From: an uncultured Jannaschia sp.
Lineage (GTDB): Bacteria > Pseudomonadota > Alphaproteobacteria > Rhodobacterales > Rhodobacteraceae
Assembly: GCF_947503795.1 (NCBI RefSeq)
Contig: NZ_CANNEZ010000003.1
Span: forward strand, 150,357-214,356
Direction: 5' to 3'
Length of the DNA stretch: 64,000 bases
The notes beneath the pieces were generated by a model that did not search any database, was not told the DNA's origin, and saw nothing but the letters and a program-made list of their open reading frames with translations. A program made the position numbers and the translations under genes. Shown here piece after piece: positions 17,949-44,485 of the stretch; position 1 is the stretch's first letter, and the number at the start of each line of letters is the position of its first letter.

Positions 17949-17949
17949 C

Positions 17950-17997: not shown

Positions 17998-18075
17998 GGT
18001 CTCGGGAGGGCTGGGTAGCCTTGCATGCGAGGGCGCAGACGTTCGCCCCCAACCAGACGTCCAGGGAGGACACCA

Positions 18076-19386: not shown

Positions 19387-19396
19387 TCTCGACCAC

Positions 19397-19421
19397 GGGG
19401 GGCGGCCGCGCGCCGCCCCCC
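19397..19421 (+). other. GC-rich intercistronic stem-loop after smoE
   Basis: GGGGGGCGGC-cgcgc-GCCGCCCCCC gives a 10-bp stem 11 nt after the stop. Confidence 0.5.
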
Positions 19422-19520
19422 GGATCCGGATGATGGCCGCCGACCTCGCGCCGGCCGCATCCCCATCGCATCCCGACGGCTTCGCACCCATGCCGGGCGC
19501 CGCCCAAGGAGGAGACCGAC

Positions 19521-20384: not shown

Positions 20385-20396
20385 GGAGACACAGAC

Positions 20397-21227: not shown

Positions 21228-21237
21228 GGAGACCGAT

Positions 21238-22244
<1,007 letters not shown>

Positions 22245-22248
<4 letters not shown>

Positions 22249-24481: not shown

Positions 24482-24494
24482 GCGAACCGGCCGC

Positions 24495-25727: not shown

Positions 25728-25799
25728 GGCCCTCTCTCGCACTCCGGGCGTCAGCGCACCATGGCACGCGCCGATTAATAAGGAAAGTAAACTAATTTA

Positions 25800-25825
25800 T
25801 TGACAGCGATCGCCACCGTCTGTCA
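25800..25825 (+). promoter_or_regulatory. TTGACA hexamer plus inverted repeat TGACAG-N13-CTGTCA in the frcR/frcB intergenic region
   Basis: Immediately downstream of the AT-rich island ATTAATAAGGAAAGTAAACTAATTTAT (25774-25800). Seen in sequence only. Confidence 0.3.
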
Positions 25826-25912
25826 GGCACGGGGACATCGTCCCGGCGCACCGGGTCGGATCATCGAGGTCGCCGGGGCAGTACCGGAGGCCCAGCTTCT
25901 GGGAGGAAGAAT

Positions 25913-26932: not shown

Positions 26933-26957
26933 TCCCGGCGAAACTCTGATAGGATGG

Positions 26958-26981
26958 ATGCGGGCCCCGGCGGGCCCGCAT
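26958..26981 (+). other. GC-rich intercistronic stem-loop after frcB
   Basis: ATGCGGGCCC-cggc-GGGCCCGCAT gives a 10-bp perfect stem. Confidence 0.5.
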
Positions 26982-27002
26982 CGCGACGGAGGGGACCCCG
27001 AC

Positions 27003-28064
27003 ATGACCGACCGCGACGACTACGAGGGCGCGACCCGCGCCGCCGACGCCCGCGTGGCGCAATTCGACGACCACGCCTCGGGCTTCGTCGGTCGCTTCCA
27101 CCACGCTCTGCACACGACACCTGCTCTGGTGCCGCTCATCGTGCTGCTGGCGGCCATCGTGACCTTCGGACTGCTGCTCGGATCCAAGTTCTTCAGCCCC
27201 TTCGCCCTGACGCTGATCCTGCAGCAGGTGCAGATCGTCGGCATCGTCGCCGCCGCCCAGAGCCTCGTGATCCTGACCGCGGGCATCGACCTCAGCGTCG
27301 GCGCCATCGCGGTCATCTCCTCGGTCGTGATGGGACAGTTCACCTTCCGCTACGGCCTGCCGGCCGAGATCTCGATCGTCTGCGGCCTGGCCGTCGGCAC
27401 GCTGATCGGCGCGGTGAACGGCATCCTCGTCGCCGTCGTCCGCCTGCCGCCCTTCATCGTGACGCTGGGCATGTGGCAGATCGTTCTGGCCGCCAACTTC
27501 CTCTATTCCGCGAACGAGACCATCCGCAGCCAGGATATCTCGAACGACGCGCCCGTGCTGCAACTGCTGGGCTGGAAATTCCAGATCGGCGGCGCGGTCT
27601 TCACCGTGGGCGTCGTCGTGATGATCGCGCTCGTCTTCATCCTCGCCTACGTGCTGCGTCACACGGCATGGGGCCGACATGTCTATGCGGTGGGCGACGA
27701 CCCGGACGCGGCCGAGCTTTCGGGCGTCGCGGTCAAGCGGACCCTCATCAGCGTCTACGCCACCGCGGGCTTCATCTGCGCCATCGCGGGCTGGGCCCTG
27801 ATCGGGCGCATCGGTTCGGTCTCGCCGACCTCGGGCCAGCTTCTCAATATCGAGAGCATCACCGCCGTGGTGATCGGCGGCATCAGCCTCTTCGGCGGGC
27901 GCGGCTCGATCCTCGGCACGCTCTTCGGCGCGCTGATCGTCGGCGTCTTCACTCTCGGGCTGCGCCTGATGGGGGCCGACGCGCAATGGACCTACCTGCT
28001 GATCGGCGTGCTCATCATCGCGGCCGTTGCGGTGGACCAGTGGATTCGAAAGGTGGCGGCATGA
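27003..28064 (+). CDS. frcC: sugar ABC transporter permease
   Basis: Start MTDRDDYEGATRAAD follows GGAGGGGA. RbsC-type permease. Confidence 0.85.
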   Translation: MTDRDDYEGATRAADARVAQFDDHASGFVGRFHHALHTTPALVPLIVLLAAIVTFGLLLGSKFFSPFALTLILQQVQIVGIVAAAQSLVILTAGIDLSVGAIAVISSVVMGQFTFRYGLPAEISIVCGLAVGTLIGAVNGILVAVVRLPPFIVTLGMWQIVLAANFLYSANETIRSQDISNDAPVLQLLGWKFQIGGAVFTVGVVVMIALVFILAYVLRHTAWGRHVYAVGDDPDAAELSGVAVKRTLISVYATAGFICAIAGWALIGRIGSVSPTSGQLLNIESITAVVIGGISLFGGRGSILGTLFGALIVGVFTLGLRLMGADAQWTYLLIGVLIIAAVAVDQWIRKVAA

Positions 28065-28834
28065 CCACGACACCCATTCTCGCGGCCTCGGGCCTGACCA
28101 AGCGCTACGGGCGGGTCACCGCATTGGACCGCTGCGATTTCGAGCTGATGCCCGGCGAGATCCTCGCCGTGATCGGCGACAACGGCGCGGGCAAGTCGAC
28201 GCTGATCAAGGCGCTTTCGGGGGCGGTCGTCGCCGATGAGGGCACGATCCAGCTCGACGGGCGCGACGTCCGCTTCTCCTCGCCCATCGAGGCGCGCGAG
28301 GCGGGGATCGAGACGGTCTACCAGACCCTTGCCATGTCGCCGGCCCTGTCGATCGCCGACAACATGTTCATGGGCCGCGAATTGCGACGACCGGGCATCG
28401 CGGGTTCGGTCTTCCGGATGCTTGACCGCCCCCGGATGGAGGAGGAGGCGCGCGCCAAGCTGAACGACCTCGGGCTGATGACAATTCAGAACATCAACCA
28501 GGCGGTCGAGACCCTGTCCGGCGGCCAGCGCCAAGGTGTTGCGGTGGCACGCGCGGCGGCTTTCGGATCGAAGGTGATCATCCTCGACGAGCCGACGGCC
28601 GCGCTGGGCGTCAAGGAGTCGCGGCGCGTCCTCGACCTGATTCAGGATGTCCGCGCCCGTGGCATCCCGATCATCCTGATCTCGCACAACATGCCCCATG
28701 TCTTCGAGGTCGCGGACCGCATCCATGTCCATCGGCTCGGCCGTCGCCTCGCCGTCATCGATCCCAAAGATTACACCATGTCCGACGCGGTCGCCTTCAT
28801 GACGGGCGCCAAGGACGCGCCGGTCGCGGCGTGA
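28061..28834 (+). CDS. frcA: sugar ABC transporter ATP-binding protein
   Basis: Start MTTTPILAASGLTKRYG overlaps the frcC stop (ATGA). Walker A GDNGAGKST and LSGGQRQGVAVARA. Confidence 0.9.
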   Translation: MTTTPILAASGLTKRYGRVTALDRCDFELMPGEILAVIGDNGAGKSTLIKALSGAVVADEGTIQLDGRDVRFSSPIEAREAGIETVYQTLAMSPALSIADNMFMGRELRRPGIAGSVFRMLDRPRMEEEARAKLNDLGLMTIQNINQAVETLSGGQRQGVAVARAAAFGSKVIILDEPTAALGVKESRRVLDLIQDVRARGIPIILISHNMPHVFEVADRIHVHRLGRRLAVIDPKDYTMSDAVAFMTGAKDAPVAA

Positions 28835-29418
28835 CGCTCGATCCGATCCTCGACCGGCTGGCCGATCTTGGGGGCGATCGCCTGCTCGTGGCCCTCGTCG
28901 GGCCGCCCGCCTCGGGCAAATCGACCCTGGCCGAGGCGCTGGTTGCCCAGCTAGGCGACGCGGCCCTCCTGCCGATGGACGGCTTCCATCTCGACGACCG
29001 CATCTTGACCCCGCGCGGCGACCGCCCGCGGAAGGGCGCGCCCCACACCTTCGATATCGGCGGGCTGTCCCGCGTGCTGGACGGGCTCCGGGCGGGCGAG
29101 GACGTCTATCACCCGATCTTCGACCGCAGCCGCGAGATCGCCATCGCGGGGGCGGGCCATATCCCCGCCGCGATCCGCACCGTGGTCGTTGAAGGCAACT
29201 GGCTCCTCCTCGACGAGCCAGGCTGGCGCGATCTCGGACCGTGGGACCTGACCGTTCGGCTGGACGTCCCCGACGAGGTGCTGCGTGCGCGACTGGCCGA
29301 TCGGTGGGCGAACCTCGCCCCCGCCGAGGCCGCCGCGAAGATCGACGGCAACGACCTCCCCAATGCCGCGCGTGTCCGCGATGGCTCGCGCCCGGCGGAC
29401 GTGGTTCTCGGGGTCTAG
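28831..29418 (+). CDS. frcK: P-loop nucleoside/sugar kinase-like protein (FrcK-like)
   Basis: 195 aa. The GTG start overlaps the frcA stop. P-loop GPPASGKST. Uridine kinase/phosphoribulokinase-like family. Confidence 0.7.
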   Translation: MTLDPILDRLADLGGDRLLVALVGPPASGKSTLAEALVAQLGDAALLPMDGFHLDDRILTPRGDRPRKGAPHTFDIGGLSRVLDGLRAGEDVYHPIFDRSREIAIAGAGHIPAAIRTVVVEGNWLLLDEPGWRDLGPWDLTVRLDVPDEVLRARLADRWANLAPAEAAAKIDGNDLPNAARVRDGSRPADVVLGV

Positions 29419-30260
29419 CGGAACGGGTCGCGGTGGTGCCGCGCCCGGTAGCGGCGCGGCGTCGTGTCGTAGGCGCGCTGGAACAAGCGGTAGAAATAGC
29501 TCGTATTGGCAAAGCCGCAGGCCAGCGCGACATTCTCGATCGCCGTGTCCTCGCTGCGCAGCAGATGCGCGGCATGATCGACGCGGATACGGTTCACGAA
29601 CTCGGTCGGAGTGATGCCCAGCACGTCACGACAGGTGCGGCAGACATGCTCGTGGCTGCGGCCCGCGGCGGCGATGAACCCGGCGGCCCCGGCGCGAAAC
29701 ACCGCGGGCGCCTGCGCGGCCATGCAAGCGCGCGCGAACCAGGCGGGCCCGTCGCGGACCGCATGGCTCTGGTCGGACGCGACCCGGTTTACCAGCGTCA
29801 GCAGGAACTCCTCGATCCGCGCGAGCGACCGATCGGTCACCTGAAGCTGCCCCGCGACGGTCAGCGCCCGCTCGAACCGCGCGGGATCGAGGAGATGCGC
29901 CTCGGGCAGAGCCGCATCGCTGTCGAAGAACCGCCCGGCAACCGTGTCGGCATAGCGCCCGGCCAGATGCGCCGCCGTCTCGGATCGGAACATGACGTTG
30001 ACGATCCGGCATCCGACGCGCCGGTCGGCCCGGAAGGCATGCGCGTCCCCCGGCCGCACGAAGGCCAGATGCCCCTCGCCGAGCACCTGCGTGACGCCGT
30101 TCACCCAATGCTCGGTATGTCCTTCGGTGATCAGGAAGACCTCGTGGAAATCGTGGTCATGCGCGCGCGCGGGCCAGCGCCGCGCCAAGCCCTTGCGGGC
30201 GAAGTGAAACGCCTCGCTGGCGGGAATATAGCTGGAGATGCGGAAGGTCTCGATCTGCAT
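29415..30260 (-). CDS. AraC family transcriptional regulator (cupin-type N-terminal domain)
   Basis: Start MQIETFRISSY (30260). C-terminal double HTH (ACGFANTSYFYRLFQRAYDTTPRRYR). The upstream part of ORF 29415..30464 crosses the intergenic promoter region. Confidence 0.85.
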   Translation of the reverse strand: MQIETFRISSYIPASEAFHFARKGLARRWPARAHDHDFHEVFLITEGHTEHWVNGVTQVLGEGHLAFVRPGDAHAFRADRRVGCRIVNVMFRSETAAHLAGRYADTVAGRFFDSDAALPEAHLLDPARFERALTVAGQLQVTDRSLARIEEFLLTLVNRVASDQSHAVRDGPAWFARACMAAQAPAVFRAGAAGFIAAAGRSHEHVCRTCRDVLGITPTEFVNRIRVDHAAHLLRSEDTAIENVALACGFANTSYFYRLFQRAYDTTPRRYRARHHRDPFR

Positions 30261-30299
30261 GGGGCAAACCAGGGTAAGGATATTCCCATCCTGCCCATG

Positions 30300-30331
30300 A
30301 AATATCAAACCTGTCCAAAAAAATATCAACC
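30300..30331. promoter_or_regulatory. direct repeats AAATATCAAACC / AAATATCAACC spaced 21 bp (candidate AraC-family binding sites)
   Basis: The two copies start at 30300 and 30321 in the AT-rich divergent intergenic region, 60-90 bp upstream of the PhyH-family gene. Confidence 0.4.
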
Positions 30332-30391
30332 GAAGGCGCAGCGCCCCGGCCCCGGCGTCCCTAACGTCGAAGGCCAGCATGGAGGGATGGG

Positions 30392-31216
30392 ATGCTGGCG
30401 ACCGAGCTCGATCTCGGGTTTCGACCCGTGCGGACCGACACGGCCACGCGTCTGACGCGGGCACAGGTCGAAACCTATAACCGCGACGGGTTCGTGCAGC
30501 CCTTCGACGTCTTCGATGCCACCGAAATCGCCGCGATCCGGGGCTATGTCGACGGGCTGATGGCGGAAATGGGCGAGGCCGGGGCCTACGGCATCAATTG
30601 CTACCAGGCGCGGCTGTCGGGGCTTTACGACATCGCGACCGATCCGCGGATCCTCGACCTCGTGCAGGACATTATCGGCCCCGACATCCTCTGCTGGGCG
30701 AGTGCCATCCTGTCGAAGCGGCCCCATGATCCGAAGGCCGTGCCGTGGCACCAGGACGCGAGCTTCTGGTCGTTGAATCCGGCGCGTACCGTCACGGTCT
30801 GGCTGGCCATCGACGACGCCGATGCCGAGAATTCCGCGATGCGTTTCATTCCGGGCACCCATGACCGCGGCGCGCTGTCGGTACAGGCGACCGGGGGCGA
30901 AGCGGTGTTCCACAAGGAAACGGCGGATGCCGACGCGCTGGGCGCGCCCTTCGACAACGTGCTGGCCGCCGGTCAGGTCTCGCTCCATGCCGACATGCTG
31001 GTGCATGGCTCGCAGCCCAATCGCTCGGATCGCCGCCGCTGCGGCCTGACGCTGCGCTATTGCCCGCCCGAGGTCCGCATAACAGACGCCGCCTGGGCGC
31101 GGGGGGTCGAGGCGATCCTCTGCCGGGGCGAGCCGGGCGATTGGTCGGTCCATCCCCGTCCCGAAAACGATGACATCACCGCCACCACCAGCCCTCACAT
31201 CGTGGGGAACAACTGA
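30392..31216 (+). CDS. phytanoyl-CoA dioxygenase (PhyH) family Fe(II)/2-oxoglutarate oxygenase
   Basis: 274 aa with HxD in WHQDASFW and a distal His in LHADMLVHGSQPN. RBS GGAGGGA. Confidence 0.8.
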   Translation: MLATELDLGFRPVRTDTATRLTRAQVETYNRDGFVQPFDVFDATEIAAIRGYVDGLMAEMGEAGAYGINCYQARLSGLYDIATDPRILDLVQDIIGPDILCWASAILSKRPHDPKAVPWHQDASFWSLNPARTVTVWLAIDDADAENSAMRFIPGTHDRGALSVQATGGEAVFHKETADADALGAPFDNVLAAGQVSLHADMLVHGSQPNRSDRRRCGLTLRYCPPEVRITDAAWARGVEAILCRGEPGDWSVHPRPENDDITATTSPHIVGNN

Positions 31217-31893
31217 TGCGGGTGACGTGGTTCGGTCAGGCCGCGATGCTGTTCGAAGGGGCGGAGCGGTCGGTGATGACCGATCCCTTCACGCCCGATG
31301 TGCTGGGATACCCGGCGATCACCGAGACCGCCGATATCGTCCTGACCTCGTCGGATGACGACGACGCGCATTGCCGCTCGGACCTGATTGCGGGCGACCC
31401 CGTGACCTGCAACACGCTCGACATCGCGGGCGACGGGCAGGGCGAGGCGGAGGTCGGCGGCCTGCGCGTCCGGGCCATCGCCGCCGAGGAATGGGAGCAT
31501 CATCCGCGCGGCACGGCCAACCAGAACGCGATGTACCGCTTCGCGCTCGACGGGATCGAGATCGCGCATATGGGCGATGTGGGCAACGCGCTCAACGAGG
31601 ACCAGACCGCCTTCTTCGAGGGGGTCGACGTGCTCTGCGCGCTGACCGGGGGTCCGCCGACGATCCGGCTGCCAGACCTGATGCACATGATCCACCGGGT
31701 GCGGCCGAAGCTCGTCATCCCGATCCACTTCCGGACGCTCGCCTACCGACCCGCGAACATCCAGTGGCTCCAGGATTTTCTCGATCACTTCAACGAGGAC
31801 GACATCGACTTCGCCTTCGGCCCGCGCGCCGACCTGGCGGCGGACGACCTGCCGGACCGCACCCGCGTGCTGGTCCTCGATCACCTCAGATAA
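31216..31893 (+). CDS. MBL-fold (Lactamase_B_3/UPF0173-like) protein with degenerate metal motif
   Basis: 225 aa. MRVTWFGQAAMLFEG...MTDPF aligns by eye to UPF0173-type MBL hydrolases, but the HxHxDH position reads SSDDDDAH. The start overlaps the upstream stop (TGATG). Confidence 0.7.
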   Translation: MRVTWFGQAAMLFEGAERSVMTDPFTPDVLGYPAITETADIVLTSSDDDDAHCRSDLIAGDPVTCNTLDIAGDGQGEAEVGGLRVRAIAAEEWEHHPRGTANQNAMYRFALDGIEIAHMGDVGNALNEDQTAFFEGVDVLCALTGGPPTIRLPDLMHMIHRVRPKLVIPIHFRTLAYRPANIQWLQDFLDHFNEDDIDFAFGPRADLAADDLPDRTRVLVLDHLR

Positions 31894-31914
31894 GCACCAC
31901 CAAGGGAGAGACAC

Positions 31915-33645
31915 ATGACCATCCGATATCTCGTCACGGGAACCGCCGCGTTGGCGCTGCTCGCCGGCACGGCCTTCGCGCAGGACGCAAGCCGCGAGGA
32001 AACCGTGATCTTCGACCTCGACCGCACGATCACCGATCCGGCCAATTTCAACTGGCTGACCGACGGGACGGGCGTCCGCCGTATGCATGGCGGCCATCAG
32101 GTCATGTGGGAGCCGATGTTCATCCTCAACTACGGCACGGGCGAGCTGGACCCCTGGTTGGCCACCGGCTTCGAGGCCAATGACGACAGCACGGAGTTCA
32201 CCATTTCGCTTCGCGACGGCGTCGAGTGGTCCGACGGCGAGGCCTTCGATGCCGACGACGTGGTGTTCAGCGTCGAGATGGCGCTTGAGAACGAGGAGAT
32301 CACCGCGCGGGAGGCCGCCACGCTCCGCAGCCAGGTCGCCAGCATCGAGAAGGTCGACGCCCAGACGGTGCGCATCGCGCTGCAGGCACCCAACCCGCGC
32401 TTCATGGTCGAAAATTTCGGCATCCGCATCTTCGGCTCGTTCCTCATCATGCCCGAGCATGTCTGGGCCGGCGAGGACCCGGCGACCTTCACCTTCCCCG
32501 AGCCGATCGGCACCGGTCCCTATACCTTCACGAGCGCGGCGACGAACCGCGCCATCTGGGACCGCAACGACGACTGGTGGGGTGCCAAGACCGGCTTCAT
32601 GGACCTGCCCGCGCCGCGCCGCGTCGTCTTCCTCGAGACCGGTGGCGAGGAGAGCCGGGCACAGCTGATAGCTTCGAACCAGCTCGATGCCGCTCAGAAC
32701 GTCACCATCGGCACGTTCGAGGCGATCCAGGCCCAGAACCCCGAAGTGATCGCCTGGCACGAAGGCTATCCCTACGCGGCCGCCGACCCCTGCGCGCGCC
32801 AGCTCGAGATCAACACCACGGTCGCGCCCTGGGACAACGCCGCGATGCGCCGCGCCGTCGCCCACATCATCGACCGCAACCAGATCGTGAATGTCGCCTA
32901 CGAGGGCACGACCGAGGCGTCGCGCACGATGTTCGCGCAATACGGCTCGATGGCGCCCTTCATCGATGCCATCGCCGAGGCCGGCTACGACCTTCCGGCG
33001 AGTGCCGATACCGAGGCCGGGCAGGCCCTGATCGAGGGCGAGGGCTGGACCCGCGACGGCGACTATTACCAGAAGGACGGCGAGACGCTGAGCGTCGAGA
33101 TCCACGTCAATTCGGCCTCGACCGAGTACACGCGGACGATCGACGTCATCGTCGAGCAGCTTCAGCGGGCGGGCATCGACGCCCGCGCCGTGCCGGTCGA
33201 GAACGGCGTCTTCTGGGGCGAGGTCCTGCCCTTCGGCGCCTACGAAATGAGCTACAGCTGGCTCAGCTGCGGATCGGTGAACGAGCCCTGGGCCTCGATG
33301 GGCCGCTACACGACCGGCGACGTGGTCCCGGTGGGCGAGCGCTCGCCCGGCTTCAACAATACCTCGCGCTGGAGCGGCGAAGCGGCCGAGGCCTATTCGG
33401 CGATCATGGACGACATCGAGGGACGCGCGCTCGGCGACCCAGAGATCCCCGCGCTGGTGGCCGAGGCCTACCAGTATCTCGACGCCGAGATGCCCTTCGT
33501 GCCGCTGGTACAGGCCGCCAAGCTGATCCCGTTCAACACGACTTATTGGGAGGGCTGGCCGACGGCGGACAACTACTACAACCACCCGTTCTTCTGGTGG
33601 AACCACGCCCACCAGATCATCCACAACCTCGAAGCCGCCGAGTAG
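31915..33645 (+). CDS. ABC transporter substrate-binding protein, family 5 (peptide/oligosaccharide type)
   Basis: 576 aa with signal peptide MTIRYLVTGTAALALLAGTAFAQD. DppA/OppA-like fold family. Confidence 0.85.
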   Translation: MTIRYLVTGTAALALLAGTAFAQDASREETVIFDLDRTITDPANFNWLTDGTGVRRMHGGHQVMWEPMFILNYGTGELDPWLATGFEANDDSTEFTISLRDGVEWSDGEAFDADDVVFSVEMALENEEITAREAATLRSQVASIEKVDAQTVRIALQAPNPRFMVENFGIRIFGSFLIMPEHVWAGEDPATFTFPEPIGTGPYTFTSAATNRAIWDRNDDWWGAKTGFMDLPAPRRVVFLETGGEESRAQLIASNQLDAAQNVTIGTFEAIQAQNPEVIAWHEGYPYAAADPCARQLEINTTVAPWDNAAMRRAVAHIIDRNQIVNVAYEGTTEASRTMFAQYGSMAPFIDAIAEAGYDLPASADTEAGQALIEGEGWTRDGDYYQKDGETLSVEIHVNSASTEYTRTIDVIVEQLQRAGIDARAVPVENGVFWGEVLPFGAYEMSYSWLSCGSVNEPWASMGRYTTGDVVPVGERSPGFNNTSRWSGEAAEAYSAIMDDIEGRALGDPEIPALVAEAYQYLDAEMPFVPLVQAAKLIPFNTTYWEGWPTADNYYNHPFFWWNHAHQIIHNLEAAE

Positions 33646-33662
33646 GCGCCGCCGATATCGAC

Positions 33663-33688
33663 GGACGGGGCGCCCCGGCGGCCCGTCC
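33663..33688 (+). other. GC-rich intercistronic stem-loop after the family-5 SBP gene
   Basis: GGACGGG...CCCGTCC outer stem with inner GC pairs, 18 nt after the stop. Confidence 0.4.
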
Positions 33689-33707
33689 CCACCCCGGAGG
33701 ACCAGAC

Positions 33708-34718
33708 ATGCTCGGCATCCCGCGCGACTACCTCGTCAATCGCCTGATCACGCTCGTGCTGACCGTGGTGATCGCCGCGACGATCATCTGGATCATCCCC
33801 CGCCTCTCGCCGGTCGACCCCGCCGAGATCGCGCTGGGCCGTATGGCCTCGGGTGCGGGTTCGGTCGCCAATGCCGACGAGATCCTGGCCCAGCTTCGCG
33901 CCAACATGGGCATCGACCAGCCGCTGGTCGTGCAATATCTCAAGTTCCTCGGTGGCGCGCTGACCTTCGATTTCGGCATCTCGACCGCCGCCTTCCCAAC
34001 GCCCGTCTCGTCGCTGATCCTGACGGCCTTGCCCTGGACGCTGGGCCTGATGATCCTGTCGCTGATCGTGACCTTCGTGATCGGCAACCTGCTGGGCGCG
34101 CTGATGGTCTGGGACCGGTCGCCCAAGCTCGTCCGCGTGGCGATCCCGGCGGCGATGGTCTTCACCTCGATCCCGCCGATCCTGTCGGGACTGCTCCTGA
34201 TGTGGATCTTCGCGGCCAAGCTCCAATGGTTCCCGCTGACAGGCGCCTATGGCCTGATGGTCGAACCGGGCTGGGACTGGGCCTTTGTCCAATCCGTCAT
34301 CCACCACGGCATCCTGCCCGCGCTCTCGATCGTGATCGTGACCTTCGGGTTCTGGGCGCTGGGGATGCGCGGCCTGATGATCACCGTGCAGGGCGAGGAT
34401 TACGTCAAGCTGGCCGAGGCCAAGGGGCTGCGTCCGCGCTACATTCTCTACCGCTACATGATCCGCAACGCGATCCTGCCGCAGATCACGGCCTTCGCGC
34501 TGAAGATCGGCCTCCTGATCGCGGGGCAAGTGCTGGTCGAACGCATCTTCGCCTACAACGGCATGGGCAAGCTGCTTTACGACGCGATCCTCAACCAGGA
34601 CTTCCCCGTCATCCAGGGCGTCAGCTTCGTCATCATCCTGATGACCGCGATCAGCGTGTTCCTGGTGGACCTGCTCTACCCGTTCATCGACCCCCGCATC
34701 CGGCATGAGAGCGCGTGA
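33708..34718 (+). CDS. ABC transporter permease (DppB/OppB type)
   Basis: Start MLGIPRDYLVNRLITLVLTVV within ORF 32577..34718. 336 aa. Confidence 0.85.
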   Translation: MLGIPRDYLVNRLITLVLTVVIAATIIWIIPRLSPVDPAEIALGRMASGAGSVANADEILAQLRANMGIDQPLVVQYLKFLGGALTFDFGISTAAFPTPVSSLILTALPWTLGLMILSLIVTFVIGNLLGALMVWDRSPKLVRVAIPAAMVFTSIPPILSGLLLMWIFAAKLQWFPLTGAYGLMVEPGWDWAFVQSVIHHGILPALSIVIVTFGFWALGMRGLMITVQGEDYVKLAEAKGLRPRYILYRYMIRNAILPQITAFALKIGLLIAGQVLVERIFAYNGMGKLLYDAILNQDFPVIQGVSFVIILMTAISVFLVDLLYPFIDPRIRHESA

Positions 34719-34844
34719 GATGATGCAAGGACGTCATGCCATCCGACGCGCAGGTATGCATCGCCCCGCGATATGTCCGCCGCACCCGGTCGCCATCGCG
34801 AGCGCGCCGCGCCCCTCGCCGAACCCATCCCACGGAGACCAGCC

Positions 34845-35807
34845 ATGACCAGCTACTCCACCGACGACGACACCGCCCAGGCCGAGAGCCATCTGCCCCT
34901 GACCCGTGCCGAGAAGCGGCAGGCGCGGCGCATCCGGCGGTTCGACAACCCGTGGCTGAACCCCAAGCTGATCTGGGGCGCGGCACTGCTTCTGGGGATC
35001 GTGGCACTCGGGTTGATCGGACGGCTGCTCTGGGATCTCGATCTCGTCTTCACCGGCTCCGCACCGCTCAAGCTGCCGCCCGTCGGTTTCGAGAACCTGC
35101 GTGGCCAGCCCGGCGTCGGGTCCTATCCCCTGGGCACGGACGGCGCGGGGCGCGACATGCTGGCGATGATCGTCGTCGGTGCGCCGAACACGCTCTTCGT
35201 TGGCCTCCTCGCCAGCCTCATCGGGATGAGCGCGGGTATCGCGCTGGGCTTCTCGGCGGGTTTCATCGGCGGTCGGGTCGACGACACGATCCGGGTTCTG
35301 GCCGACGTGATGATCACGATCCCCCCGCTCCTGATCCTGGTGGTGTTCCAGACCTCCTACGGTGATGTCAGCCTCACGATGATGGCGCTCCTGATTGCGG
35401 GGTTCGTCTGGCAATCGCCGACCCGGCTGATCCGCGCGCAGGTCCTGTCGATGAAGCGGTCCGGCTATGTCCAGATGGCGCAGCTCTCGGGCGCCTCGAC
35501 GCCGCACATCATGTTCCGCGAGATGCTGCCCAACCTCGTGCCCTATCTCTTCGGGTCGTTCATCGCCTCGGTCACCACGTCGATCGTCACGGCCGTCGGC
35601 CTCGAGGTGCTGGGCCTCGGCCCCCAGCGTATCCCGACCCTCGGGCGTACCATCTACGAGGCCATCAACGCGGGCGCGCTGATCCAGAATCTCTGGTGGT
35701 GGTGGGGCATTCCGACGATCCTGCTGGCGGTGATCTTCATCGGCCTCCTGCTCATTAACCTCGGCCTCGACGAGGTCTCGAACCCCCGCCTGAGGAAGCT
35801 GAGCTGA
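34845..35807 (+). CDS. ABC transporter permease (DppC/OppC type)
   Basis: Start MTSYSTDDDTAQ follows GGAGA. 320 aa. Confidence 0.85.
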   Translation: MTSYSTDDDTAQAESHLPLTRAEKRQARRIRRFDNPWLNPKLIWGAALLLGIVALGLIGRLLWDLDLVFTGSAPLKLPPVGFENLRGQPGVGSYPLGTDGAGRDMLAMIVVGAPNTLFVGLLASLIGMSAGIALGFSAGFIGGRVDDTIRVLADVMITIPPLLILVVFQTSYGDVSLTMMALLIAGFVWQSPTRLIRAQVLSMKRSGYVQMAQLSGASTPHIMFREMLPNLVPYLFGSFIASVTTSIVTAVGLEVLGLGPQRIPTLGRTIYEAINAGALIQNLWWWWGIPTILLAVIFIGLLLINLGLDEVSNPRLRKLS

Positions 35808-37549
35808 TGGATGATGCGACCCTCGACAAGCCGGTCCTGACGCTGCGCGATCTCTCGATCGAATTCCCGACACCCAAGGGCATCGTCCAGGCGGTCAAAG
35901 CCCTCGACCTCACCATCCACAAGGGGCGTCGCGTCGGCTTCATCGGCGAGAGCGGGTCGGGCAAGACCACGACCGCGCTTGCCGTGATGCAGATGCTGGC
36001 CGAGCCGGGGCGCGTGTCGTCCGGCACGATCGACCTCGCGGGCACCGACATCCTGTCGCTCTCCGAAGAAGAGATGCGCCGCACGCGGCTCGACCGGATC
36101 GCCTATATCCCGCAGGGCGCGATGAACTCGCTGAACCCCGTGATGCGGGTCGAGCCGCAGATGTGGGATGCGATCATCGCCCATGAAGGCAACGTTCCAC
36201 GCGCCGATCTCAAGGCCCGCTCGGATGCGGCGCTGACTTCGGTGGGCCTGCCCGCTCATACCGGCCGCCTCTACCCGCACGAACTCTCGGGCGGCATGAA
36301 GCAGCGGGTCTGCATCGCGCTCGGGATCATCCTCAACCCGGACCTCATCTTCGCGGACGAACCGACCTCGGCGCTCGACGTCGTCACCCAACGGCAGGTG
36401 ATGCAGACGCTGAACGCCATCCAGGCGCAGATCGGGTCCGGCCTGATCCTGATCGGACACGACATGGGGCTGATGGCGCAATCGGTGGACGAGCTCGCGG
36501 TGCTGAAGGACGGCGAACTGGTCGAGCACGGCACCGTCCGCCAGATCATCGAGGCCCCGAAGCATCCTTACACGCAGGACCTCATCTCCTCGGTGCCGCT
36601 AGTCGGCGGCGAGAGTTTCCTCAACCCCGACCGCGGCGCGCCCGCGCCCCGCCGCGACAGTCCCGAACCGCTCCTGCGCTTCGAGGATGTCTCCAAGCGC
36701 TACGGCGCGGTCACGGCGCTTCACCCGATGTCCTTCGCGCTCGAGGGCGACACGCCGCAGATCATCTCGATCGTCGGCCAGTCGGGGTCCGGCAAGTCGA
36801 CGATGGGGTCGATCATGCTGGGCTTCAATCCGCCCTCGGACGGCCGCGTCCTCTTCGAGGGGCGCGACGTCTACGGCATGGGCGCCGCCGAACGCCTCGG
36901 ATTCCGCAAGAACGTGCAGGCCGTGTTCCAGGACCCCTATGCCTGCTTCAATCCGTTCTACCGCGTCAGTCACGCGCTGCGCTTCCCGTTCAAGCGCTTC
37001 GGCCTGGCCAGATCCGAGGCCCACACCAGACAGGCCATGGAAGACGCCTGCGGGGCGGTCGGCCTCGACCCCGATCTCGTGCTGCCGCGCTATCCGCACC
37101 AGCTTTCGGGCGGTCAGCGCCAGCGCCTGATCGTCGCCCGCGCCCTGATGCTCAGCCCCAAGCTCCTGATCGCGGACGAGCCCGTCTCGATGGTCGATGC
37201 CTCGCTCCGCGCCTCGATCCTGTCGAATATCTACGGCCTGAAGGACAAGCACGGCATCTCGATCCTCTACATCACCCACGACCTGGCGACGGCCTATCAT
37301 GTCAGCGATTACGTCATGGTTCTCTTCAAGGGACACGTGGTCGAGTCGGGGCCGCCCCGGCAGGTGATCGGCGATCCGCAGCACCCCTACACGCGGCTTC
37401 TGATCGATTCGATCCCGTGGCCCGATCTCGACCGCGCGTGGGGCGGCGGCGGCATCGACTGGGATCCGTCGGCGGACGAGGCCGAGGCTGCGCGCACCGC
37501 CGCGGTCCATCGCGGCACGGTGCCCGGGTTCGACCTGACCCCCGCCTGA
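35807..37549 (+). CDS. fused two-domain ABC transporter ATP-binding protein (DppD/DppF type)
   Basis: 580 aa with two Walker A motifs (GESGSGKTT, GQSGSGKST) and two LSGG signatures. The start overlaps the upstream stop (TGATG). Confidence 0.9.
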   Translation: MDDATLDKPVLTLRDLSIEFPTPKGIVQAVKALDLTIHKGRRVGFIGESGSGKTTTALAVMQMLAEPGRVSSGTIDLAGTDILSLSEEEMRRTRLDRIAYIPQGAMNSLNPVMRVEPQMWDAIIAHEGNVPRADLKARSDAALTSVGLPAHTGRLYPHELSGGMKQRVCIALGIILNPDLIFADEPTSALDVVTQRQVMQTLNAIQAQIGSGLILIGHDMGLMAQSVDELAVLKDGELVEHGTVRQIIEAPKHPYTQDLISSVPLVGGESFLNPDRGAPAPRRDSPEPLLRFEDVSKRYGAVTALHPMSFALEGDTPQIISIVGQSGSGKSTMGSIMLGFNPPSDGRVLFEGRDVYGMGAAERLGFRKNVQAVFQDPYACFNPFYRVSHALRFPFKRFGLARSEAHTRQAMEDACGAVGLDPDLVLPRYPHQLSGGQRQRLIVARALMLSPKLLIADEPVSMVDASLRASILSNIYGLKDKHGISILYITHDLATAYHVSDYVMVLFKGHVVESGPPRQVIGDPQHPYTRLLIDSIPWPDLDRAWGGGGIDWDPSADEAEAARTAAVHRGTVPGFDLTPA

Positions 37550-37554
37550 CCCCC

Positions 37555-40500
37555 ATGCCCGAACGTCACCACACCTGGCGCTTCACCCGCGAGAAGATCG
37601 CGACCCGGCTCAAGCTGATCGAACCGATGATCCATCGCCGGCATCTCGCGCTGCCGTCGCTGCGGCTGATGCCGCTGACCGGCCCGATGATCGACGCGCC
37701 GATCTGCGCCGACCCGACCGGCTGGCCCGAAATCCCGCCGGGCACCTATTGGGGCGGGGCCGATCTCGACTTCGTGCTGAAGACGTCCTTCACCGTCCCG
37801 GCGGACTGGAAGCCGGAACACCTCGCGCTGCACCTGCCGCTTGGGCTCTCGGGCGACATCTTCAACCATCCCGAGGCGCTGCTGCATATCGACAGGACGC
37901 CCATCGGGTCCGCAGACCGCTATCACCACACCGTCCCGCTCGACGACGGGCTGGCCGATGGCGCGTCCCATGTCGTCTCGCTTCACGGCTGGACGGGGCT
38001 GGCCGGGTGGCCGCCGGATCCGGACGCCCGCGCCAAGCTGATGATGGGCACGCCCGCGCTCGTGCAGCGGTGCCCCGCCACGCTCGCATTCCACAGGCTG
38101 GCCGAAACGGCGCTCGACGTGGCGACCACCCTCCCCCGCGACGACGCCACCGCGCGGGGCCTGCTCGATGCGCTCGACGCCGCGTTTCTCGTGCTCGACA
38201 CGCGCGACCCGATGGGCGAGCGGTTCTACGCGTCTGTCCCGGATGCCATGCGATGCCTGGAAGCCGGTATCGCCGCCGCCGGTCCGCCCCGCGACGAGGT
38301 CCTGCACGGCATCGGCCACGCGCATATGGACATCGCCTATCTCTGGACGGTCGATCAGATCCGCCTGAAGAACGCGCGGACCTACTCCAACGTCCTGCGC
38401 CTGATGGAGGCCGATCCCGACTATCGGTTCTCGCATTCCCAGCCCGCCCTCTACGAGATGACGCGGCAGGACTATCCCGAAATGTTCGACGCGATCCGCG
38501 CCCGCGTCGCCGAGGGCCGCTGGGAGGTGATGGGCGGCATGTGGGTCGAACCCGACCTGAACATCCCCGGCCCCGAAGCGCTGGTGCGCCAGCTCACCCT
38601 CGGCCGCGCGTGGTTCGCCGAGATGTTCGGCGACGTGGAAACGCCCGTGCTCTGGCTGCCCGACACGTTCGGCTTCCCCGGCCAGGTGCCGCAGCTGATG
38701 CGACAGGCGGGTCTCGACTGGTTCGTCACAAACAAGCTCAACTGGAACCAGATCAACCGCGTCCCGTTCTCGACCCATCACTGGGAGGGGATCGACGGCA
38801 GCCGGGTGCTGGCCCACATCCTGACGACGCCGCGCCCGGTCCAGTACCTGCCCTTCCCGACGAACTACAAATCCGATCTGAGCGCAGCCGAGGTGCTGGG
38901 CACCGTCACCCACGCCCAGGGCCCGGCCACGACCGGCTTGCCGATCTGCTACGGCTATGGCGACGGCGGTGGCGGCCCGACCGAGACGCTCCTGGAAAAG
39001 GCCCGCATCATGGGCGGAATGCCGGGGATGCCACGCCTGCGCATGTCGACGGTGCGCGACGCGCTCGCCGCTCTGGAGACGACGCCCGACCTACCGATCT
39101 GGCATGGCGAGCACTACATGGAGGGCCATCGCGGCACCTTCACGTCGCAGGGCTGGATCAAGCGGGCCAACCGCTTCGCCGAGCGCGCCCTGCACGAGGC
39201 CGAGGCGCTGTCGGCGATGGCCGGTCTCGCGCCCGATCTGACCGACGCGTGGCGCCTCCTCTGCCTCAACCAGTTCCACGACATCCTGACCGGCACCTCC
39301 ATCGGCGCCGTCTTCGAGGATGCCGGTCGCGACTACGCCCGGCTGGCCGAGATGACGGAGGCTGCCGCCACGGCCGCCGCTGCGCGACTGGCGGGCGCCG
39401 TGCCGCATGTTCTGAACACCTGCCCGACCACCGGGCCGCGCGTCGCCCTCCTGCCCGCCGAAGCAGCGGGCCAAGTCACGCCGGACGGCACGCTCCGCCT
39501 GCTGCCCGACCTGCCCGCCTATTCCGTCACGGCCCTGCCCGAGGCCGCCACGCCAGACGCACCCGCCACGATCACGCAAGACGGCACGACCCATATCCTC
39601 GCCAATAGCCAGGTCGAGCTCACCGTCGCCGCCAACGGCCAGCTTCTCGCGGTGACCGACCGCGTCACAGGCCGCGAGATCCTGACCGACATGCCCGCGA
39701 ACCGCCTTCTGGCCTTCGAGGACCGCCCGATCTGCTGGGACGCGTGGGATATCGATCCACATTACGAAGACCGCTGCGAGGCCATCGCCGCCCCCGCCAT
39801 TTGCGAGATCGTCGAGACCGGGCCGGTGCGCGTGGCCCTCCGCGTGACCCATAACTGGCGCGACAGCGCGATCGTCCAGACGATCCGCCTCACCGCCGGA
39901 TCGGCGCGGATCGATTTCGACACCGAGGTCGACTGGCACGAGCGCCACATCCTCCTGAAGGCGGCCTTCCCCGTCGCGCTCGAGGCGGACACTGCGCTCT
40001 ACGATATCCAGTGGGGCACGATCGCCCGGGCGACCTCCCGCGTGTCGGCCTTCGACGCCGCCCGATTCGAGGTGCCGGCCCAGAAATGGGCGCAGCTCAC
40101 CGACGGGTCCCAAGCCGTCGCGCTCCTGAACGACTGCAAGTACGGGCACGACACCCAGGGCTCGACCATGCGGCTGACGCTGATCAAGTCGGCGACCTCG
40201 CCCGACCCGCAGGCCGACCAGGGGGCGCATCGCTTCACTTACGCGCTGATGCCGTTTCCCGCGGATCGGCAGGACCTGCTCGACCACGCGGCCTATGATT
40301 TGAACACGCCGCTGCGGATCATCCCGGCCGGCGGCGCGACCGCGCCGGGCATCGCGATCCGCTGCGACACGCCGGGCGTGATCGTGGAAACCCTGAAGCC
40401 TGCATTCGATGGCGATGGCTGGACGCTGCGCCTCTTCGAACGGCTGGGGCACGAGACGGAGGCGCGGATCACGCTCGACCGCCCCGCACGATCCATCCAG

Positions 40501-40608
40501 CCGACCGACCTGCACGAAATGCCCACGGGTACGCCGTTGCCATCGGGCGCCGTCATCGAAGTGCCCCTCGGACCGTTCGAGATCGCGACGCTGCGCCTTC
40601 GGTTCTAG
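37555..40608 (+). CDS. glycoside hydrolase family 38 alpha-mannosidase (cytoplasmic)
   Basis: 1017 aa from MPERHHTWRF. GH38 N-terminal catalytic region HGIGHAHMDIAYLWT...GGMWVEPDLNIPG. No signal peptide. Confidence 0.85.
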   Translation: MPERHHTWRFTREKIATRLKLIEPMIHRRHLALPSLRLMPLTGPMIDAPICADPTGWPEIPPGTYWGGADLDFVLKTSFTVPADWKPEHLALHLPLGLSGDIFNHPEALLHIDRTPIGSADRYHHTVPLDDGLADGASHVVSLHGWTGLAGWPPDPDARAKLMMGTPALVQRCPATLAFHRLAETALDVATTLPRDDATARGLLDALDAAFLVLDTRDPMGERFYASVPDAMRCLEAGIAAAGPPRDEVLHGIGHAHMDIAYLWTVDQIRLKNARTYSNVLRLMEADPDYRFSHSQPALYEMTRQDYPEMFDAIRARVAEGRWEVMGGMWVEPDLNIPGPEALVRQLTLGRAWFAEMFGDVETPVLWLPDTFGFPGQVPQLMRQAGLDWFVTNKLNWNQINRVPFSTHHWEGIDGSRVLAHILTTPRPVQYLPFPTNYKSDLSAAEVLGTVTHAQGPATTGLPICYGYGDGGGGPTETLLEKARIMGGMPGMPRLRMSTVRDALAALETTPDLPIWHGEHYMEGHRGTFTSQGWIKRANRFAERALHEAEALSAMAGLAPDLTDAWRLLCLNQFHDILTGTSIGAVFEDAGRDYARLAEMTEAAATAAAARLAGAVPHVLNTCPTTGPRVALLPAEAAGQVTPDGTLRLLPDLPAYSVTALPEAATPDAPATITQDGTTHILANSQVELTVAANGQLLAVTDRVTGREILTDMPANRLLAFEDRPICWDAWDIDPHYEDRCEAIAAPAICEIVETGPVRVALRVTHNWRDSAIVQTIRLTAGSARIDFDTEVDWHERHILLKAAFPVALEADTALYDIQWGTIARATSRVSAFDAARFEVPAQKWAQLTDGSQAVALLNDCKYGHDTQGSTMRLTLIKSATSPDPQADQGAHRFTYALMPFPADRQDLLDHAAYDLNTPLRIIPAGGATAPGIAIRCDTPGVIVETLKPAFDGDGWTLRLFERLGHETEARITLDRPARSIQPTDLHEMPTGTPLPSGAVIEVPLGPFEIATLRLRF

Positions 40609-40957: not shown

Positions 40958-41659
40958 TCACATCATGCGGATCACCTTCGGATCGAGTGCCAGCACATAA
41001 CCCTGCCGCGTGATGTTGCGGATCAGCAGATGGGTCACGATCTGGTTGCCCAGCGCGTCGCGCAGCCGTTTGATGCGCGTGGCCCCCGCCGCCTCCTCGC
41101 AATCGCTTTCGGGCTTGCCCGAGATCATCGCCTCGATCTGCGCGCCGGTCAGCATGTCGCCGTCCAGCCGCGCCTCGGCCAGAACCGACAATGTCTCCAT
41201 CGCCGCATCGGTCAGCTTCAGCTCGATATCGTTGAGCATCACCGCGTTCTCGGCCCGCGCCAGCACCAGCGACGTCACCTGGATGCCCGAGCGCTCGATC
41301 TCGCCCATCCGGCGGTTCAGCGTCACGATGGCCAGAAGCAGCACGACGCAGGCGATCAGCAGCGCGGTCGCGAAGACCAGCAGCACGAATATGACGGTCC
41401 GGTAGCTGGCCAGGACTTCGCCGAAGGCGGTGCCCGACTGGGCCAGAACCTCCAGAAGGCCGATCTCGGCGCGGGTGGTCAGGTCGGCTTCGACGAACAG
41501 GCGCTCGACGCGCATGTTGAACGCGTTGCCGTCGGGCAGCGTGGCGAACAGGAAGATCGCCGCCGCCGCCAGGATGACGACGATCGCGGCGATGCCGAAG
41601 CCCACGACCTTGGCCGAGGCCGCGCGCGTCTCAGTAACGGAGGAAGTATTCGCCGGCAC
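40958..41659 (-). CDS. membrane-anchored protein with two N-terminal TM helices and a C-terminal OmpR/PhoB-type winged-helix domain
   Basis: 233 aa. TM1 VVGFGIAAIVVILAAAAIFLFATL and TM2 TVIFVLLVFATALLIACVVLLLAIVTL. The C-terminus IELKLTDAAMETLSVLAEA...ATRIKRLRDALG...LIRNITRQGYVLAL fits the trans_reg_C pattern. GTG start; an alternative GTG lies at 41605. Confidence 0.65.
   Translation of the reverse strand: MPANTSSVTETRAASAKVVGFGIAAIVVILAAAAIFLFATLPDGNAFNMRVERLFVEADLTTRAEIGLLEVLAQSGTAFGEVLASYRTVIFVLLVFATALLIACVVLLLAIVTLNRRMGEIERSGIQVTSLVLARAENAVMLNDIELKLTDAAMETLSVLAEARLDGDMLTGAQIEAMISGKPESDCEEAAGATRIKRLRDALGNQIVTHLLIRNITRQGYVLALDPKVIRMM

Positions 41660-43300: not shown

Positions 43301-44485
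<1,185 letters not shown>

Follow-up and report, generated by a model that had tools for sequence, protein, structure and literature searches.

An AraC-linked operon of Jannaschia and its relatives combines an Opp-type importer and a GH38 alpha-mannosidase with a PhyH dioxygenase and a remodelled MBL-fold protein

Opp-type sugar import, import of glycans followed by mannose trimming with a glycoside hydrolase of family 38 (GH38), and oxidative demethylation in the porphyran loci of Bacteroidetes are all known. We analyzed a window of 64,000 nt of a Jannaschia sp. contig, part of an alphaproteobacterial chromosome of 68% GC, and we describe an operon in it in which these themes appear to meet. 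The new aspect is an alphaproteobacterial cassette that joins an ATP-binding cassette (ABC) importer and a GH38 mannosidase with a PhyH-family dioxygenase, a protein of the metallo-beta-lactamase (MBL) fold with a remodelled metal motif, and a modular slot for oxygenases. Full-text searches of the published literature returned no description of this cassette, and only papers on cytochrome P450 enzymes were informative.

The closest described importers are the Vibrio chitooligosaccharide system (binding protein 1zty) and those of Thermotoga maritima TM1223 and TM1226 (4pft and 4pfu), which share with the Jannaschia system a family-5 binding protein, OppBC permeases and OppDF ATPases. They import oligosaccharides for cytoplasmic hydrolysis, as we propose here. 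However, the Jannaschia importer matches them at just 1e-33 to 1e-36, its ATPases are fused, and oxygenase and MBL-like genes are embedded in its operon. The glycosidase resembles the Ams1/Man2C1 class and the bacterial enzymes 7ufr-7ufu, which are likewise signal-less, about 1,000 residues long and equipped with a long N-terminal extension, and whose systems follow the same logic of importing first and trimming mannose in the cytoplasm. Unlike full N-glycan systems, the cassette has no beta-mannosidase, N-acetylglucosaminidase (GlcNAc-ase) or GH125 partners. In the MngB/MngA system of Escherichia coli, a GH38 enzyme also cleaves an imported alpha-mannoside in the cytoplasm, but MngA is a transporter of the phosphotransferase system and the substrate is phosphorylated, whereas the window enzyme lies outside the MngB family.

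Oxygenases that strip decorations from glycans have been described in the porphyran-agar loci of Zobellia galactanivorans and Formosa agariphila, which carry a CYP236A demethylase for 6-O-methyl-D-galactose (Robb et al. 2018, PMC6292453). As in those loci, the glycan clusters of the sister cassettes carry an oxygenase of the decoration-removing type. The hosts of the cassette are Alphaproteobacteria with an ABC importer, whereas the Bacteroidetes loci use SusC/D, and the glycosidase is a GH38 mannosidase in place of an agarase or porphyranase. In the version found in the window, an Fe/2-oxoglutarate (2OG) PhyH enzyme takes the place of the Bacteroidetes P450, and there are no ferredoxin or reductase genes. 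The MBL-like protein has the fold and size of the TM0207/UPF0173/UlaG group (PF13483). TM0207 keeps the HxHxDH motif, whereas the cassette family has S-S-D-D-D-x-A-H, and as TM0207 is itself without known function, the resemblance yields no mechanism.

The reading that we favor, with a probability of roughly 0.45, is that the operon is a self-contained, sugar-inducible catabolic cassette of marine Rhodobacterales that would take up alpha-mannosides bearing a decoration, probably O-methyl groups, hydrolyze them in the cytoplasm and remove the decoration by oxidation. Its generic core, namely mannoside import, a cytoplasmic GH38 and some oxidative tailoring, is in our view quite likely to be correct. 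In this scheme, the AraC/cupin regulator would bind a 21-bp-spaced direct repeat in the divergent promoter and, in the presence of its ligand, switch the operon on. A cluster C binding protein would capture an alpha-mannose-containing oligosaccharide or glycoside in the periplasm, and the Opp-type permeases with their fused ATPase would import it intact. The signal-less, Ams1-like GH38 would hydrolyze its alpha-mannosidic bonds in the cytoplasm, and the dioxygenase PhyH-1, made together with the MBL-like protein, would remove or transform, probably first, a decoration that otherwise blocks catabolism. The likeliest decoration would be an O-methyl ether, whose methyl carbon would be hydroxylated to a hemiacetal that gives a free hydroxyl and formaldehyde, the same type of reaction as that of CYP236A P450s on 6-O-methyl-galactose. 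The capture, import and GH38 steps rest on family membership and localization signals. We infer the oxygenase step solely by association, from sister cassettes that carry a second paralogue, PhyH-2, and/or a homologue of the CYP236-family demethylases; PhyH-1 designates the oxygenase of the window throughout. The genes of the cassette and its putative operator are as follows.

29415..30260, minus strand: regulator of the AraC/XylS family, transcribed divergently from the operon, whose N-terminal cupin domain is of the sugar-sensing type
30301..30329, no strand: putative AraC operator, a direct repeat about 90 nt upstream of the PhyH ATG
30392..31216, plus strand: PhyH-1, Fe(II)/2-oxoglutarate dioxygenase (PF05721)
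31216..31893, plus strand: MBL-like protein, TM0207/UlaG-type (PF13483), with a remodelled metal motif
31915..33645, plus strand: periplasmic family-5 (cluster C) solute-binding protein of the oligosaccharide-binding type (PF00496), with a Sec signal peptide
33708..34718, plus strand: ABC permease 1, OppB/DppB/NikB type (BPD_transp_1 and BPD_transp_1_N)
34845..35807, plus strand: ABC permease 2, OppC/DppC type (BPD_transp_1)
35807..37549, plus strand: ABC ATPase of the OppD-OppF type, both halves fused into a single chain (ABC_tran and oligo_HPY domains, two of each)
37555..40608, plus strand: cytoplasmic GH38 alpha-mannosidase of the Ams1/Man2C1-like class (four GH38 Pfam domains)

The cassette comprises eight genes; the regulator is encoded on the minus strand, the other seven all run in one direction on the plus strand (30392-40608), and the third-position GC of all eight (0.82-0.91) is that of genuine genes in a genome of 68% GC. 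As read from the sequence, the PhyH-1 and MBL-like genes overlap in a TGATG. The MBL-like gene is followed by 21 nt, with a GGGAGAG ribosome-binding site inside, before the binding-protein gene, which is separated from permease 1 by 62 nt. There are 126 nt between the two permeases, a TGATG overlap between permease 2 and the ATPase, and 5 nt between the ATPase and GH38. An earlier description of this DNA made from its letters and reading frames, hereafter the sequence-only reading, had reported seven packed co-directional genes divergent from an AraC/cupin regulator. The coordinates and Pfam domains agree with it, and its list of junctions is exact; only the AraC start codon, which it had placed at 30263, had to be moved to 30260. 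The start of permease 2 at 34845 agrees with the N termini of homologues, and an alternative in-frame ATG at 34773 was ruled out by homologue alignment. The 126-nt spacer between the permeases (34719-34844) is also present in Jannaschia sp. KMU-145; in most other genera these genes are 0-4 nt apart or overlap. Inspection of the translations revealed a signal peptide on the binding protein and none on PhyH-1, the MBL-like protein or GH38, in line with the earlier statement that the only glycosidase of the operon is cytoplasmic. No RNA element was matched in Rfam. A stem-loop 3' of the binding-protein gene folded no better than shuffled sequence (z -0.26), and neither did the region 3' of GH38 (z +1.63), where no intrinsic terminator was found. 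None of the eight proteins reached an NCBIfam equivalog cutoff, which together with the outcome of the literature searches bears out the earlier remark that no pathway could be named for this operon.

We used the MBL-like protein as a search marker and found relatives in 383 of about 185,000 species-representative genomes, mostly Rhodobacterales. The loci of the best 80 of these 383 genomes were compared. Almost all belong to Rhodobacterales (Jannaschia, Dinoroseobacter, Marivita, Litoreibacter, Yoonia, Nereida, Tateyamaria, Pontivivens and Roseobacter sp. CCS2), with a few from Devosiaceae, Rhizobiaceae, Roseitalea, Inquilinaceae and Geminicoccaceae. A tblastn comparison with the eight window proteins showed the same order and orientation in about 65 of the 80 loci, the exceptions being mostly contig ends, and the co-conservation of the PhyH-MBL-binding protein-GH38 block across Rhodobacterales, a check proposed with the sequence-only reading, is thereby established. 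GH38 follows the ATPase in all 55 informative loci. Independent gene calls combined with Pfam gave the same arrangement in Pontivivens ytuae, a Nereida sp. and a Paracoccaceae metagenome-assembled genome, and in the nearest genome, that of KMU-145, the proteins are 92-99% identical over the cassette. Besides KMU-145, the strains in culture that carry it include Roseobacter sp. CCS2, Marivita hallyeonensis DSM 29431 and Pontivivens ytuae. Clustering of the flanking open reading frames (ORFs) across loci detected nothing conserved beyond the cassette, indicating that it moves as a module. The cassette is a real functional unit, and its strict collinearity across genera, together with a conserved operator described below, supports the view that it forms one AraC-linked operon.

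Some variation was seen within this collection. PhyH-1 and GH38 are 92% identical to their KMU-145 counterparts and the six genes between or beside them 98-99%, and the ends of the operon look mosaic, possibly through recombination. A Paracoccaceae metagenome-assembled genome with a 6.3-Mb chromosome carries a decaying copy (L002/L028:10001-20681), in which an insertion sequence element with an rve integrase splits GH38, and in which gene calling broke up the genes for the binding protein, PhyH-2 and the ATPase into fragments. In the Dinoroseobacter clade (L017:4109-7504 and 7-8 related loci), genes for a 790-aa aldehyde-dehydrogenase-family protein and a DeoC/LacD-type aldolase lie beyond the AraC gene, and a gene for a YdcZ-type membrane protein separates PhyH-1 from the MBL-like gene. 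The neighbors for aldehyde dehydrogenase and DeoC are limited to these 8-9 loci, and the extra genes may be clade-specific additions to the pathway.

A clue to the decoration comes from the gap between the binding-protein and permease 1 genes, a slot whose content we scored in 68 non-redundant related cassettes. The slot is empty in 44 loci, namely 40 with PhyH-1, which is the architecture of the window, and four without any oxygenase. It is occupied by PhyH-2 in 20 loci, by PhyH-2 together with a cytochrome P450 in two, and by a P450 alone in two. Overall, PhyH-1 is present in 62 of the 68 cassettes, and the MBL-like protein, which was the search marker, in all of them. The sister cassettes that bear a P450 are L013, L054, L056, L093, L094 and L096; the last three were found by P450-based searching, and the order of P450 and PhyH-2 is reversed in L096. 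The P450 gene of L094 is at L094:3748-4923. A metagenome scan with the P450 yielded a single relative, on a 2.6-kb contig.

The cassette P450 matched P450ZoGa of Zobellia (6g5o/6g5q) at 1.6e-94, far ahead of the next-best P450 at 7e-36. P450ZoGa (6G5O), from Z. galactanivorans, performs the oxidative demethylation of 6-O-methyl-D-galactose to galactose and formaldehyde (PMC6292453). In its active site, Glu62 and Gln70 form hydrogen bonds with O2, O3 and O4 of the sugar, and Arg66 tunes Glu62 (PMC6292453). Glu62, Arg66 and Gln70 are invariant in the cassette P450s, as is the GGRDT acid/alcohol motif. The most economical reading, we infer, is that the oxygenases tailor the carbohydrate and that the slot proteins PhyH-2 and P450 do analogous jobs, which would be to remove O-methyl groups oxidatively, perhaps at different ring positions; PhyH-1 would then carry out chemistry of this sort too.

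Relatives of this P450 were also encountered outside GH38 cassettes. A family-1 sugar ABC operon with a GH13 alpha-amylase-family enzyme (L095:4642-11167) ends in a gene for a P450 of this clade, which shares 53% identity with that of the cassettes, and transposase and recombinase genes surround this GH13 alpha-glucoside operon. The arrangement suggests that P450s of the sugar type are mobile and are added to various glycoside operons. With members in a GH13 operon as well, the clade tracks operons for glycoside import and hydrolysis and not a particular aglycone. In Jannaschia maritima LMIT008 (L097:2318-4328, which is the L014 region), an MBL-like homologue with 76% identity to the window protein occurs apart from any mannosidase cassette, in a neighborhood of monosaccharide catabolism with no GH38. 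A gap of 163 nt separates its gene from that of a P450 of this clade, which comes next downstream in the same direction. A PfkB kinase gene flanks the pair, and a convergent operon encodes an aldehyde dehydrogenase, a DHDPS-type aldolase, a GFO/IDH/MocA oxidoreductase and a ribose-type sugar ABC importer.

The mannosidase of the window belongs to GH38, with matches to Glyco_hydro_38N (9e-75), Alpha-mann_mid, 38C and 38C2; the scores were 252 bits for PF01074 (cutoff 25), 78.1 for PF09261 (31.1), 196.7 for PF07748 (25) and 47.2 for PF17677 (22). Its translation contains the motifs GHAHMDIAYLW, LPDTFGF and NQFHDILTGT, which by comparison with dGMII and Ams1 we take to hold the Zn ligands and the nucleophile. 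Residues 251-1015 matched Ams1 (6lz1) at 5.5e-119 and 402 bits, and over the same residues the tetrameric bacterial GH38 structures 7ufr-7ufu, presumably intracellular N-glycan mannosidases of Bifidobacterium longum, fell within 1e-109 to 5.5e-119. The mannosylglycerate hydrolase model MngB (NF007331) was tried and rejected, as it gave 59.5 bits against a cutoff of 1138 and covered 175 N-terminal residues only (250-424). The mannosylglycerate-type substrate proposed in the sequence-only reading thus lost ground, the enzyme being close to the Ams1-type cytosolic oligomannosidases. From its family membership, it follows that GH38 should hydrolyze alpha-mannosidic bonds in the cytoplasm.

The binding protein matched SBP_bac_5 (PF00496) at 6.4e-58 and begins with a Sec-type leader, MTIRYLVTGTAALALLAGTAFA/QD. 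The closest relatives with a solved structure are 8i5j and the Vibrio chitooligosaccharide binding protein 1zty (both 6e-36), then the Thermotoga mannoside binding proteins 4pft and 4pfu (1e-33), with lower scores for nickel and peptide binders. None of the equivalogs NikA, DppA, OppA and GsiB was reached at the NCBIfam cutoff. These relatives bind oligosaccharides and not peptides, which tells against the mannosyl-peptide or other small mannoside envisaged earlier. Permease 1 is 70-91% identical across related cassettes. The ATPase unites two ABC_tran and two oligo_HPY domains in one protein of 580 aa and matches the YejF/GsiA-type fused ATPases end to end, at scores below their cutoffs. With an SBP_bac_5 domain, a signal peptide, OppB/C permeases and OppD/F ATPases, the system is an Opp-type cluster C importer, and the Pfam domains and the adjacency of the permease and ATPase genes confirm the earlier assignment to family 5. 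The same description had set it apart from classical sugar systems; the Opp-type part of that statement stands, but not the implied oddity, since Opp-type sugar importers are not unusual in themselves.

PhyH-1 matched PF05721 at 7.5e-31 (108.5 bits, cutoff 22). Its facial triad, H120-Q-D122 ... H205, and its 2OG-binding motif, S207/N210/S212/R216, are invariant in 28 homologues, and the model score, HxD...H triad and 2OG arginine together place it in the PhyH family. An AlphaFold2 model with a predicted local distance difference test (pLDDT) score of 86.9 matched ThoJ and SyrB2 in Foldseek searches of the PDB. The closest structure is ThoJ (6zyl, 29% identity), a likeness so distant that it does not indicate the substrate. 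Because the triad and the 2OG arginine are complete and invariant, PhyH-1 is, judging from its residues, a hydroxylase-type enzyme and not a halogenase. The halogenase model TIGR01762 ("chlorinating enzyme") gave 79.2 bits against a cutoff of 226.3, and the Asp of HxD is invariant, with no HxA/G. The names "chlorinating enzyme" and "syringomycin biosynthesis enzyme" that databases give to PhyH-1 homologues were rejected on the same grounds, the intact HxD and the sub-cutoff score.

The MBL-like protein matched Lactamase_B_3 (PF13483) at 2.7e-39 and 135 bits, and its AlphaFold2 model (pLDDT 88.8) has the MBL fold. The best match is TM0207 (1vjn), both in sequence (2.9e-20) and in structure (E 2e-16, TMt 0.86 in Foldseek against the PDB). 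The canonical HxHxDH is replaced by S-S-D-D-D-x-A-H, and alignment with the SHQHFD-H of TM0207, opposite which the family reads S-D-D-D-D-A-H, shows that the first two His have been replaced. Across 34 homologues, down to 57% identity, no substitution occurs at S45, S46, D49 or H52, nor at H118, D121 or H171, and D47, D48, A51 and C53 are almost as constant. The sequence-only reading had called the protein a degenerate MBL-fold protein. The fold was correctly recognized, but random degeneracy does not fit a rebuilt motif that is invariant or nearly so, and such a carboxylate-rich site argues for a functional rather than a dead site. The protein probably uses a harder, carboxylate-liganded metal site. 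It is kept even in the oxygenase-free cassettes and is the core, most constant non-transport partner of GH38. Its possible roles include a lactonase of the UlaG type, an esterase or phosphodiesterase for a second decoration, and a structural partner of the oxygenase. In a plasmid collection, only MBL-like homologues of about 33% identity were found, in unrelated contexts.

The regulator matched HTH_18 (1.4e-21), HTH_AraC, AraC_binding and Cupin_2 in Pfam. In NCBIfam, it gave a weak, near full-length match to ChbR, and its best match was a partial, C-terminal one to RhaS; both are sugar-responsive AraC regulators. Its gene is present and divergent beside the cassette in most related loci. The operator in the window has the sequence AATATCAA-N13-AATATCAA with a 21-bp period (30301-30329). 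At the equivalent position, NNNNTCAA-N13-NNNNTCAA is found in 62 of 72 related AraC-side intergenic regions, the consensus across loci being AAWRTCAA-N13-nnnRTCAA, and the two strands of the whole window together contain just three matches to a loose version of the pattern. This direct-repeat geometry is that expected for an AraC-family activator and supports the regulatory link. With its double helix-turn-helix, cupin domain and tandem operator, the protein has the domains and the repeat of an AraC/XylS sugar-responsive activator, and from its family membership it follows that it would control the operon from this conserved operator.

Several observations weigh against demethylation as the function of the oxygenases. 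In the window, the slot is merely 62 nt long and holds neither a CYP236-type P450 nor PhyH-2, so that demethylation reaches PhyH-1 by guilt by association only, and PhyH-1 and PhyH-2 are merely 27% identical. Four cassettes do without any oxygenase. The hydrophobic residues that cradle the methyl group differ in the cassette P450 (V58P, F73I, M270I), and its overall identity to P450ZoGa, about 39%, puts it outside CYP236A, in a different subfamily; plausibly, it has a different methyl-sugar specificity. P450 homology does not fix the substrate either, as one CYP236A member also hydroxylates cyclohexane in vitro (PMC11910816). Neither ferredoxin/reductase nor formaldehyde-detoxification genes were found within the cassettes, and the nearest structures of PhyH-1 and PhyH-2, at 20-29% identity, act on peptides, amino acids and antibiotic sugars. 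As demethylation needs no hydrolase, the model moreover gives the MBL-like protein no role. We know of no Fe/2OG sugar demethylase, and searches of the published literature found no 2OG-dependent one. Hydroxylation of methyl groups of this kind is nevertheless well within the capacity of Fe/2OG enzymes, examples being AlkB and the O-demethylases that act on codeine and thebaine in plants.

Other explanations were considered for the same genes. The imported compound may be a small mannosylated metabolite (mannosylglycerate/digeneaside or an osmolyte glycoside) or a mannosyl-peptide, from which GH38 frees mannose while PhyH-1 and the MBL-like protein catabolize the aglycone. This would suit the characterized PhyH enzymes, for most of which the substrate to be hydroxylated is a small molecule or an amino acid (EctD, proline and leucine hydroxylases, ThoJ), the ability of family-5 binding proteins to bind also opines, metallophores and peptides, and the translational coupling of PhyH and MBL, as expected for consecutive steps. 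However, glycerate needs no oxygenase, GH38 is far from MngB and close to the oligomannoside-trimming Ams1, and the nearest solved binding-protein relatives are oligosaccharide binders. The accessory slot, furthermore, holds a P450 of the sugar-demethylase type with conserved sugar-contact residues, whose clade also serves the GH13 glucoside operon. We regard this explanation as unlikely, and with a homologue of a carbohydrate O-demethylase in the related slot, action of the oxygenase on an aglycone, as suggested in the sequence-only reading, is less likely than action on the sugar. The overlap of the PhyH-1 and MBL-like genes would also be explained by an oxidative cleavage of glycosides, in which PhyH-1 hydroxylates a C-H by the glycosidic oxygen (e.g., C1 of a GH38-resistant residue) to an aldonolactone that the MBL-like protein, as a UlaG-type enzyme, opens. 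We know of no precedent for 2OG-dependent glycoside cleavage, and the MBL-like protein persists in cassettes that have no oxygenase. PF13483/COG2220 does include the lactonase UlaG, several homologues are named UlaG by the Joint Genome Institute (JGI), and the UlaG structures 2wyl/2wym are among the Foldseek matches, but that match is weak (TM ~0.57, 17% identity), the top one is TM0207, without known function, and the canonical metal motif of UlaG is not conserved. Even though, in J. maritima, the MBL-like gene has as its neighbor an oxidative sugar-acid locus for which a lactonase would be required, we find this explanation quite improbable.

The decoration might instead be an ester, on a mannan or N-glycan bearing phosphonate, phosphate or sulfate, with the MBL-like protein as phosphodiesterase or sulfatase and PhyH-1 as a PhnY- or AtsK-like enzyme. 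Weak NCBIfam matches of PhyH-1 (2.6e-8) and PhyH-2 (2.6e-10) to methylphosphonate hydroxylase point that way but lie far below the family cutoffs (33.7 bits versus 500). The Foldseek matches of the MBL-like protein include the phosphodiesterases PhnP and NAPE-PLD, a cAMP-bound MBL protein and the MBL-fold arylsulfatase 8gyg, yet the protein has not retained the His-rich Zn site of such MBL phosphodiesterases and sulfatases. With no HD-domain PhnZ partner or phosphonate genes in any cassette, and a P450 clue that points to methyl ethers, we give this possibility little credence. It may be, finally, that the operon scavenges plain alpha-mannooligosaccharides or high-mannose N-glycans, for which the transporter and GH38 would suffice if unmodified, and that PhyH-1 and the MBL-like protein are unrelated to the imported substrate. 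The four cassettes without any oxygenase would agree with this. It would leave unexplained, however, the presence of PhyH-1 in nearly all cassettes and of the marker MBL-like gene in every one, the location of both genes within the operon, where they come after the promoter and ahead of the transporter genes and overlap at stop and start codons, and their persistence with the cassette in unrelated genomic contexts in several alphaproteobacterial families. It appears to us a long shot. Over these alternatives, we prefer the reading in which decorated alpha-mannosides are imported, hydrolyzed in the cytoplasm and stripped oxidatively of what are probably O-methyl groups.

The operon stands at the end of a carbohydrate island (16917-29418). 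One part of the island combines a LacI regulator with a family-1 sugar ABC importer and with a long enzyme of the mannitol-dehydrogenase family, whose best NCBIfam match, D-arabinitol 4-dehydrogenase, is below threshold. The other part consists of a ROK regulator, a ribose/xylose-type ABC importer and a protein of a nucleoside/nucleotide-kinase family, the gene of which is convergent with the AraC gene, with overlapping stop codons at 29415-29418. Directly downstream of GH38 is a 233-aa ORF on the minus strand (40958-41659), with a gene-like third-position GC of 0.90 and hydrophobic segments; it had no Pfam or NCBIfam match and is not conserved beside other cassettes. Farther along, an N6_N4_Mtase DNA methyltransferase with a C-terminal RAMA domain (43376-44485) lies beside RNase HII and resembles the CcrM-type methylase of the alphaproteobacterial cell cycle. 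A 1645-aa ORF with gene-like codon bias occupies 51231-56168 on the minus strand.

Roseobacter-group bacteria are major consumers of algal organic matter, and their uptake of glycans is poorly mapped because the well-studied SusC/D loci are missing from them. Candidate substrates for the cassette include the N-glycans of green and red microalgae with 3-O- or 6-O-methylmannose, methylmannose polysaccharides, and the methylated mannose of dissolved polysaccharide in the sea. It is to their methylation that such marine carbohydrates owe a resistance to ordinary glycosidases. To our knowledge, the Bacteroidetes P450 is the only enzyme class for sugar demethylation, and if the oxygenases of the cassette remove methyl ethers, they would constitute a new one. 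That the cassette hides a new enzyme activity is a realistic possibility, although less likely than not. It may likewise be, at similar odds, that PhyH-1 and PhyH-2 are the first Fe(II)/2-oxoglutarate-dependent carbohydrate O-demethylases, interchangeable with CYP236-type P450s and accompanied by a new carboxylate-rich MBL-fold metalloprotein. If so, Roseobacter-group bacteria would consume O-methylated alpha-mannans or microalgal N-glycans, which would explain how methylated mannose from microalgal N-glycans, mannans and dissolved organic matter re-enters the carbon cycle, and a whole MBL-fold subfamily with a rebuilt metal site would gain a function. The marker of the cassette is present in at least 383 species-level genomes with no assigned substrate. 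On a conservative reading, the cassette would provide a regulator-linked marker operon for the use of alpha-mannosides by marine Alphaproteobacteria, of which cultured carriers exist.

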